Assembly (NCBI RefSeq): GCF_003334385.1
Contig: NZ_QOWN01000010.1
Length of the DNA stretch: 64,000 nucleotides
Strand: one strand, 5' to 3'
Origin: Escherichia coli
GTDB lineage: Bacteria > Pseudomonadota > Gammaproteobacteria > Enterobacterales > Enterobacteriaceae
Of the stretch, positions 6,817 through 8,876 are shown piece by piece. Position 1 is the stretch's first letter, and the number at the start of each line of letters is the position of its first letter. The notes under the pieces were generated by a model. It was given only the letters and a program-made list of their open reading frames with translations. It was not told the DNA's origin and did no database searches. The position numbers were made by a program, and so were the translations under genes.

Positions 6817-7464
6817 ATGAACTATCGTATTATTCCGGTCACCGCATTCTCCCAGAACTGTTCATTAATCTGGTGTGAACAAACCCGTCTGGCCGCACTG
6901 GTCGATCCTGGCGGCGATGCGGAAAAAATCAAACAGGAAGTTGATGACAGCGGCCTGACACTGATGCAGATCCTGCTGACGCATGGTCATCTGGACCACG
7001 TTGGCGCAGCGGCGGAACTGGCGCAACATTACGGCGTGCCGGTTTTCGGCCCGGAAAAAGAAGATGAGTTCTGGCTGCAAGGCTTGCCTGCGCAAAGTCG
7101 TATGTTTGGTCTGGAAGAGTGCCAGCCGCTGACGCCAGATCGTTGGCTGAACGAAGGCGATACCATCAGCATAGGGAATGTGACTTTACAGGTGTTACAT
7201 TGCCCTGGGCATACGCCGGGTCATGTCGTGTTTTTTGATGATCGGGCAAAGCTGCTGATTTCTGGCGATGTTATTTTCAAAGGCGGAGTAGGGCGCAGTG
7301 ACTTCCCGCGTGGCGATCATAATCAACTGATTTCTTCAATCAAAGATAAATTGCTGCCACTGGGGGATGACGTGATATTTATTCCGGGTCACGGACCATT
7401 ATCCACACTTGGTTATGAACGCCTGCATAATCCCTTCCTGCAAGACGAAATGCCCGTCTGGTAA
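6817..7464 (+). CDS. ycbL: Metallo-beta-lactamase fold hydrolase YcbL (GloC, glyoxalase II-like), 215 aa
   Basis: ORF 215 aa with the THGHLDH zinc-binding motif. Confidence 0.92.
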
Positions 7465-7471
7465 GGCACAT

Positions 7472-7496
7472 AAAAAAGCCCGCTTTTAATGCGGGC
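7472..7496 (-). terminator. Hairpin GCCCGC-N7-GCGGGC with a U6 tract on the minus strand; likely 3' end of the aspC transcript
   Basis: Plus strand reads AAAAAA GCCCGC TTTTAAT GCGGGC; a U-tract follows the stem only when read on the minus strand. Confidence 0.45.
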
Positions 7497-7526
7497 CTGG
7501 ATTTCTGGCAAAGTGCGCTTTGTTTA

Positions 7527-7627
7527 TGCCGGATGCGGCACGAGCGCCTTATCCGGCCTACAAAATCGTGCAAATTCAAAATATTGCAGGGGACGCGTAG
7601 GCCTGATAAGCGTAGCGCATCAGGCAA
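7527..7627. repeat. REP/BIME cluster (two inverted REP-like palindromic units)
   Basis: GCCGGATGCGG...CTTATCCGGCCTAC and GTAGGCCTGATAAGCGTAGCGCATCAGGC, in opposite orientation, in the ycbL-aspC intergenic region. Confidence 0.75.
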
Positions 7628-7649
7628 TGTTGCGTTTGTCATCAGTCTC

Positions 7650-7680
7650 AGCCCGCTTTTCAGCGGGCTTCATTGTTTTT
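7650..7680 (+). terminator. Hairpin AGCCCGC-N6-GCGGGCT followed by a T-rich run on the plus strand; likely 3' end of the ycbL transcript
   Basis: Stem 7650-7656/7663-7669 followed by TCATTGTTTTT; no U-tract in the minus orientation. Confidence 0.45.
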
Positions 7681-7685
7681 AATGC

Positions 7686-8876
7686 TTACAGCACTGCCAC
7701 AATCGCTTCGCACAGCGGAGCCATGTTATCTGGTGTCATCCCGGCCACATTTACGCGACCAGAAGCAACCGCATATACGCCAAACTCTTCGCGCAGACGC
7801 AGCACTTGTTCTTTTGTCAGGCCACTGAAGGAGAACATGCCGTTCTGTTTGATGATAAAGCTGAAGTCGCGGTTTGCGCCTTTTTCCTGCAGCGTATTGA
7901 CGAACAACTGACGCATACGCTGAATACGCTGGCGCATATCAGTCAGCTCTTGTTCCCAAATCGCACGTAACGCATCGTTGCTCAGGATGGTGGCAACAAC
8001 AGAAGCGCCGTGTGCTGGTGGGTTAGAGTAGTTAGCGCGAATCGCCGCTTTCATTTGGCTGAATGCGCGATCAACGGTTTCACTGTCGGCAGCAACCAGA
8101 GTACAAGCGCCAACACGCTCGTTGTACAGGCCAAAGTTTTTAGAGTAGGAACTGGCAACAATCAGCTCTTTATGCATAGCCGCGAAAGCGCGCAGTCCTT
8201 CAGCATCTTCTTCCAGACCACGGGCAAAACCCTGGTAAGCGAAGTCAAACAGCGGTAACCAGCCTTTCTCAACGGAGAGTTGTGCCAGTGTTTGCCATTG
8301 TTCCAGCGTAGGGTCGATACCGGTTGGGTTATGGCAGCAGCCATGGAACAGCACTACGTCGCCAGCCTGAGCTTCATTCAGGCTGTTAATCAGTGCATCG
8401 AAGTCAAGAGTGTGATTTTCCGCATCATAATAAGCGTATTCACGAACTTCCAGACCTGCAGAGTTAAAGACGCTCTTATGGTTCGGCCAGCTTGGGTTGC
8501 TCACCCACACACGCTTAACGCTGGTATTTTTTGCCAGGAAATCGGCAGCCACGCGTAGTGCGCCAGTGCCCCCCGGAGTCTGTGCCGTGCGAGCACGTTT
8601 GTCATTGATCAGGGCGCTACCTTTACCAAACAGCAGTTCCTGAGTGCAGCGACCAAATTCAGGGATGCCGTCAATGCCGAGGTAATTTTTGGTGGTTTCA
8701 TTTTCGAGCAGATACTGTTCAGCCTTTTTCACGCTGGTCAGTACCGGGGTTTTGCCCGTCTCATCTTTATAGACACCAATCCCGAGGTTAATTTTGCCGG
8801 GACGTTCATCGGCACGAAACAGATCGGCCAGGCCCAGAATCGGGTCGGCAGGAGCGGCGGTAATGTTCTCAAACAT
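7686..8876 (-). CDS. aspC: Aspartate aminotransferase AspC, 396 aa
   Basis: ORF 396 aa beginning [16 protein letters not shown]; PLP-lysine region SYSKNFGLY. Confidence 0.97.

Follow-up and report, generated by a model that had tools for sequence, protein, structure and literature searches.

A probable split of one bidirectional terminator between gloC and aspC of Escherichia coli, with a hairpin copy at each border of a BIME-1 element

The gap between the convergent genes gloC (ycbL) and aspC of Escherichia coli shares features with several described systems. The closest are the overlapping bidirectional terminators of Ju et al. (2019), in which convergent transcripts share a single hairpin placed between an A-tract and a U-tract. 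The short alleles of this gap and its likely ancestral form are a textbook case of that arrangement. In the long alleles, in contrast, each tract accompanies its own copy of the hairpin, with 173 bp from one copy to the next; judged by sequence, neither copy works in both directions, and release of the minus-strand transcript is Rho-dependent in K-12. Between the copies lies a BIME-1 (RIP, RIB), an element described as a Y and a Z1 REP joined by an L linker that contains an IHF site, about 140–150 bp long and located at the 3′ ends of transcription units, and present in some E. coli isolates but absent from others (Bachellier 1997, cited in PMC1187871 and PMC3333891). The element in this gap agrees with known BIME-1 in composition, size, linker, and presence/absence polymorphism.

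REP sequences have also been described as stabilizers of 3′ UTRs and as partly Rho-dependent attenuators (Espeli 2001, as cited, and, for REP325, the preprint of Harris et al. 2026). Here, too, a REP pair is situated in a 3′ UTR between convergent genes and Rho acts nearby, but the stable ends in K-12 fall at a copy of the terminator hairpin, which is not a REP, rather than at the REPs. The locus is built of known kinds of parts, and what is new is the split arrangement of the terminator and the duplication of a whole hairpin at the borders of BIME-1. No such duplication at BIME-1 is described in the papers that we compared, Ton-Hoang 2012, Nunvar 2010, Delihas 2011, Di Nocera 2013, and RepRanger 2025 among them. 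The nearest statement found is that of Di Nocera 2013, in which REP dimers of other phyla are "inserted within small palindromes." REP insertion in vivo is still described as incompletely established in a 2026 preprint.

We analyzed a stretch of 64,000 nucleotides of E. coli DNA, referred to here as the window. In it, gloC, encoding a hydroxyacylglutathione hydrolase, occupies 6817–7464 on the plus strand (stop codon, 7462–7464), and aspC, encoding aspartate aminotransferase, occupies 7686–8876 on the minus strand (stop codon, 7686–7688), according to both the open reading frame list and the RefSeq annotation. The two genes converge on a gap of 221 nt, stop to stop, at 7465–7685. Small open reading frames across the gap run through REP sequence and were disregarded. 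From left to right, the gap holds an A-tract, CATAAAAAA (7469–7477; UUUUUUAUG as read on the minus strand); hairpin copy 1 (7477–7497, with stem arms at 7478–7483 and 7491–7496); a complete BIME-1 of 152 bp (7498–7649); hairpin copy 2 (7650–7670, with stem arms at 7650–7657 and 7662–7669); and a T-tract, TCATTGTTTTT (7670–7680, on the plus strand, with a mapped K-12 3′ end at the equivalent of 7673). Both tracts recur beside the single hairpin of the short alleles. They are the putative ancestral flanks of the terminator, the left one kept by hairpin copy 1 alone and the right one by hairpin copy 2 alone.

The BIME-1 was recognized by alignment to other copies, with 7500–7655 being 84–88% identical to BIME-1 at gcd-cueO and fepA-entD, and its borders were confirmed on 103 copies. 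It consists of inverted Y and Z1 REPs with the L linker between them, has the size of known BIME-1, and is present once, with no further copy within the 64-kb window. Its ends resemble inverted repeats (TGGATTTCTGGCAAAG ... CGTTTGTCATCAGTCTC). The Y-type REP, or palindromic unit (7528–7561, with CTAC at its end), and the Z1-type REP (7597–7626, with GTAG at its start) were delimited by their inverted repeats and by alignment, the latter also by alleles that IS621 interrupts. The L linker (7562–7596) is unique within the window and carries a predicted IHF site, the consensus-like sequence AATTCAAAATATTG. It also matches Rfam RF02751 (the ES036/CssrF sRNA) at 7562–7604 on the plus strand, scoring 53 bits where the gathering score is 37.6. 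This family appears to model the repeated element rather than a locus-specific sRNA, and the Rfam search gave no other match above threshold. In some E. coli strains, including an O104:H4 outbreak strain, IS621 (IS110 family) lies inside the Z1 REP at window position ~7600, directly after GCGTAG, and in these interrupted alleles (L003, 1001–1107, and L004) hairpin 2 and aspC are cut off from the rest of the gap.

The original prediction held that two near-identical hairpins flank the REP cluster and that each has its U-tract on the strand transcribed from the far gene, and both points were confirmed. Hairpin 1 is GCCCGC-ttttaat-GCGGGC (7478–7496), with CATAAAAAA before it and CTGGATTTCTGG after it; hairpin 2 is AGCCCGCT-tttc-AGCGGGCT (7650–7669), with CATCAGTCTC before it and TCATTGTTTTT after it. 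They have in common the exact 11-nt direct repeat AGCCCGCTTTT (7477–7487 and 7650–7660, 173 bp apart), about 0.005 of which would be expected by chance in 221 nt by our own calculation, and they enclose the Y and Z1 REP pair. Both have the stem of an intrinsic terminator (6–8 bp, with 6 GC pairs), and a U-tract follows hairpin 1 on the minus strand only (UUUUUUAU, versus CUGGAUUU on the plus strand) and hairpin 2 on the plus strand only (UCAUUGUUUUU, versus GAGACUGA on the minus strand). Hairpin 1 is thus terminator-like solely for RNA of the aspC sense. A scan with a terminator consensus found 7 sites in 2.4 kb, compared with 2.6 ± 1.8 in shuffled sequences, and the two top sites were these hairpins in the same orientations (plus strand, 7650–7669; minus strand, 7498–7476). 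RNA folding, proposed with the prediction as a check, gave an energy of −13.6 kcal/mol for minus-strand hairpin 1, whereas hairpin 2 reached −14.0 kcal/mol as plus-strand RNA and −15.4 kcal/mol as minus-strand RNA. The Z-scores against shuffles were −2.0, −1.9, −4.9, and −5.9. GC-rich GCCCGC/GCGGGC stems are frequent among terminators, and two unrelated terminators might resemble each other by chance. The probability of such a coincidence is negligible in our estimation, given the 11-nt exact repeat within an alignment of ~20 nt, BIME-1 ends that fall within 1 nt of it, a single copy in the empty allele, and recurrence of the same pattern at six other loci.

Comparison of alleles and of related genera indicated which state came first. 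Among 5,426 complete genomes, the long allele was found in at least 3,177, comprising 2,806 that share the window's form of hairpin 1 and 371 of the K-12 type, and the short allele was found in at least 1,204, including O157:H7. Short E. coli alleles have a gap of 49–50 nt with one hairpin, an A-tract to its left, and a T-tract to its right; the long allele differs from them by an insertion of 173 bp with the 11-nt repeat at its bounds, and some complete genomes have a gap that is ~171–172 bp shorter. We also collected 80 Enterobacterales loci around gloC, of which 69 had a short gap (median, 54 nt). Tracts were counted on GC-trimmed stems and accepted if A filled no fewer than 5 of the 9 positions upstream and T no fewer than 5 of the 9 positions downstream. 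By this measure, 66 of these 69 gaps held one GC-rich hairpin with both tracts, and the 3 others had imperfect versions of it. The stem sequence varies by genus. Thus, the ancestral state was one bidirectional intrinsic terminator, an arrangement of two tracts on one hairpin that the short E. coli allele retains and that neither hairpin of the long allele has.

We consider it probable that both hairpins of the long allele are copies of this one ancestral terminator, duplicated by insertion of BIME-1, and that the insertion had functional consequences for both transcripts. The ancestor would have had one GC-rich hairpin between an A-tract and a T-tract. The 152-bp BIME-1 (7498–7649) would then have integrated at the hairpin, duplicating the whole palindrome of ~21 bp in the manner of a target site duplication, with the A-tract remaining beside the left copy and the T-tract beside the right one. 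With one tract left per copy, each hairpin qualifies as a canonical terminator for the far gene alone, and a split origin thereby accounts for two near-identical hairpins that face the "wrong" way. Alternatively, the long allele could be ancestral and the single-hairpin alleles could have arisen by deletion between direct repeats, with no insertion or target duplication. The presence of the 221-nt allele in E. albertii as well, and the fact that the O157:H7-type short allele is the exact product of recombination between the 11-nt repeats, fit such a course of events. We regard it as very unlikely, since a single hairpin is found in 66 of the 69 other Enterobacterales, the rarity of the filled yjbR-uvrA allele (88 of 5,426 genomes) shows that the change there went toward insertion, and the flanking hairpins are locus specific at all BIME-1 sites examined.

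Further alleles bear on the history of this gap. The O157:H7-type short allele (L001, 366–415) has a loop of the hairpin 2 type (TTTTCA) and matches what recombination between the 11-nt repeats of the long allele would yield, so that it may have arisen by later excision and not be an ancestral empty site. In Pseudocitrobacter, BIME-1 was inserted independently at gloC-aspC, at a different hairpin (GGCCGC). In Entomohabitans teleogrylli (L075, 2148–2377), the gap holds an insert of ~150 bp that has an IHF consensus site and no REPs; the insert has BIME-1-like ends (AGATTGATGGC... and ...CTTTGTCAGCAGT) and is flanked by a 25-bp duplication of the local terminator hairpin, which suggests that the mobile unit may be defined by its ends and not by its REPs. 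In Citrobacter sp. 18056 (L053, 2148–2238), two different terminator-like hairpins (GCCGCG... and GGCCGC...) stand in tandem with no element between them.

The window allele is not of the K-12 type. It is identical in many wild isolates, and K-12 differs from it at 7493. The G7493T change in the 3′ arm of hairpin 1, specific to the lineage of K-12 and its relatives (371 of the 5,426 genomes), breaks a stem pair and weakens the fold from −13.6 to −7.4 kcal/mol. The far terminator of aspC is thus crippled in the strain from which all transcript data come, which cautions against treating K-12 as typical for this terminator. In E. albertii, the shared long allele also has a stem mismatch in hairpin 1, suggesting that this hairpin may be under weak constraint. 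The divergent E69 lineage has kept the hairpin 1 stem, with changes in the loop alone, and the hairpin 2 stem was intact in all lineages seen.

Published K-12 data locate the transcript ends, with MG1655 coordinates being window coordinates plus 976,833 and with the G7493T form of hairpin 1 in every data set. The SEnd-seq data (Ju et al. 2019) list overlapping site #69 (984478–984506, or window 7645–7673), seen in both log and stationary phase for ycbK:ycbL:aspC, and two Term-seq data sheets give a strong primary aspC 3′ end at 984479 on the minus strand (window 7646). The mapped ends at hairpin 2 therefore lie at 984506 on the plus strand and at 984478/9 on the minus strand, the latter despite the lack of a U-tract. 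No 3′ end at the mutated hairpin 1 is reported in the K-12 SEnd-seq or Term-seq data, and the TERMITe supplements make no mention of gloC or aspC. The gloC transcript stops at its far hairpin in K-12, as had been predicted, with its end at window 7673 by SEnd-seq and not at ~7496. The aspC RNA has its dominant stable end at its near hairpin (7645–7646), so that the two stable RNAs overlap by 29 nt; the ~200 nt of complementary stable 3′ UTRs that the prediction implied was not borne out in K-12.

Inhibition of Rho with bicyclomycin affected the two strands differently in K-12. On the minus strand, the ratio of downstream to upstream coverage at 984273 rose from 21/102 to 105/114 (Rho score, 4.47; P = 7e-9), an increase in read-through from 21% to 92%, and this Rho region sits within gloC antisense. 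On the plus strand, coverage around 984537 went from 17/173 to 69/226 (Rho score, 3.1), corresponding to read-through at hairpin 2 of ~10% and ~30%, respectively. The coordinates of both Rho regions rest on 800-nt windows and low read counts. The asymmetry fits the positions of the U-tracts. In K-12, hairpin 2 stops gloC transcription largely without Rho, whereas aspC polymerases are not stopped there, cross the entire region, and depend on Rho. Transcription thus overlaps by ~200 bp while the stable RNAs overlap by only ~29 nt, at least in K-12, and the expectation that aspC is stopped at the far hairpin holds insofar as its polymerases pass the near one under bicyclomycin but fails for the dominant stable end.

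The stable aspC end lies 4–5 nt beyond hairpin 2, which has no U-tract on this strand, and is most simply explained as trimmed RNA protected by the hairpin. This resembles the Rho-terminated transcripts trimmed back to a stem-loop that were described by Dar and Sorek 2018 (PMC6061677), in keeping with the bicyclomycin sensitivity of the signal downstream of aspC; for aspC, we infer the trimming. REP-protected intermediates, which might be expected if Rho acts beyond BIME-1, are not listed in the K-12 data. A near-hairpin end of this kind recurs at other SEnd-seq sites, with one hairpin copy only represented at pbp4b-yfeX (#198) and mgtA-ridA (#346); the empty yjbR-uvrA locus has a single SEnd-seq site (#330). 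Calls of terminators from sequence would misplace the aspC 3′ end.

These data bear on two further readings. In the first, both mRNAs end at the far hairpin and carry stable 3′ UTRs of ~200 nt that are complementary across the REPs. The U-tract positions, the gloC end at its far hairpin, and the crossing of the region by aspC transcription under Rho inhibition are all consistent with this, as are p19-captured RNase III duplexes of sense and antisense RNA that map to window 7279–7322, within the 3′ part of gloC, and demonstrate the presence of antisense RNA at that place in K-12. However, the dominant aspC end maps to the near hairpin by two independent methods, hairpin 1 has no reported end and the overlap measures 29 nt in K-12, the near-copy pattern is repeated at pbp4b-yfeX and mgtA-ridA, and the gloC duplexes could stem from a minus-strand promoter-like site at 7343–7316, a possible source of antisense RNA alternative to aspC read-through. 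We judge this reading improbable, at least in the form of two stable overlapping UTRs.

In the second, which we consider somewhat less doubtful and still unlikely, hairpin 2 is the sole working terminator and serves both strands, with pausing at the hairpin and head-on collision with polymerases from gloC ending aspC transcription, while hairpin 1 is a decaying by-product without function. Ju et al. (2019) count hairpin 2 among their overlapping bidirectional sites, a collision model allows hairpins with poor U-tracts to define convergent ends (bioRxiv 10.1101/2022.10.23.513370), and the hairpin 1 stem has mismatches in K-12 and E. albertii while that of hairpin 2 is intact everywhere seen. 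Against this, minus-strand coverage past the region reaches ~92% of its upstream level under bicyclomycin, which indicates that Rho, and neither the hairpin nor collision, is responsible for release there. Furthermore, hairpin 1 is exactly conserved in ~2,800 genomes, and the E69 lineage retains its stem despite the altered loop.

Under the split-terminator model that we favor, gloC transcripts pass copy 1 and BIME-1 and undergo intrinsic termination at copy 2, as the K-12 data show. Since copy 2 lacks a U-tract on the minus strand, aspC polymerases continue into BIME-1, as read-through under bicyclomycin shows for K-12. In K-12 they are released by Rho, and their RNA would then be trimmed back to copy 2, which would place the stable aspC 3′ end there. 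In strains with an intact copy 1, where the hairpin is followed by U6, we predict that read-through polymerases that escape Rho would stop at ~7470, before entering gloC antisense. E. coli offers a natural series of three alleles: the unsplit terminator that serves both directions, the split one whose halves are both intact, and the K-12 version, in which one half is crippled. These alleles form an isogenic-style test bed in which the contributions of hairpins, U-tracts, Rho, REPs, and convergent polymerases to the setting of 3′ ends can be compared.

Border duplications were also found at other BIME-1 copies. Metagenome contigs scanned with a motif of the BIME-1 right end yielded 103 near-full-length copies at ~16 distinct loci, for which the 40 nt to the left were aligned with the 40 nt to the right (for mismatched locus pairs, scores averaged 6.0, with the 99th percentile at 12). 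Scores of 12–26 were obtained at 7 of the ~16 independent loci, and at these 7 a locus-specific hairpin of 18–30 bp is directly repeated, 0–2 nt from the BIME-1 ends. The Pseudocitrobacter insertion at gloC-aspC is among these 7. Elsewhere, a hairpin is present on one side only or is absent. At gcd-cueO and fepA-entD it is on one side at most, so duplication is not universal. Empty sites, each with a single hairpin, were found for gloC-aspC, pbp4b-yfeX, and yjbR-uvrA, and the latter two loci likewise lie between convergent genes. The pbp4b-yfeX locus (L120, 10883–11034, and L210) has filled and empty alleles with a 30-bp repeat and is filled in 1,401 genomes; the yjbR-uvrA locus (L147, 5660–5812, and L211) has a 21-bp repeat and is filled in only 88 of 5,426 genomes, K-12 and O157:H7 being empty, so that insertion was clearly the direction of change there. 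At pbp4b-yfeX in other E. coli (H95 and H106), copies of IS1B and IS200C lie at or beside BIME-1.

Whole-hairpin duplication can be read as a specific footprint of the BIME-1 insertion event. In its ends, direct repeats, filled and empty sites, and lack of coding capacity, BIME-1 resembles MITEs with target site duplications (PMC3184786). It differs from them in that the duplication has no fixed length but follows the length of the target palindrome (18–30 bp), which a standard transposase stagger does not explain, and REP-linked enzymes of the IS200/IS605 type make no duplications such as those at the BIME-1 borders. That the palindrome is copied in full, be it short or long, suggests a step guided by structure, possibly a cut at the foot of a cruciform or hairpin extruded from the DNA, which would leave a full copy on each side. 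BIME-1 may thus be a recently mobile, MITE-like element specific for terminator hairpins, mostly between convergent genes, that duplicates the entire palindrome on insertion, a generalization that we offer tentatively and hold with less confidence than the split origin of the gloC-aspC terminator. If correct, conversion of one bidirectional terminator into two one-way, far-side terminators with the element between them would be a systematic side effect of insertion, and the hairpin duplication would provide a testable handle on how REP and BIME elements insert.

A further terminator upstream of aspC was seen in the same region, that of ompF, at window ~9008 (K-12 985841, minus strand). It has a very strong "orphan" Term-seq 3′ end, and its hairpin, AAAAAACAGGACTTTGGTCCTGTTTTTTTT, is flanked by both an A-tract and a T-tract.
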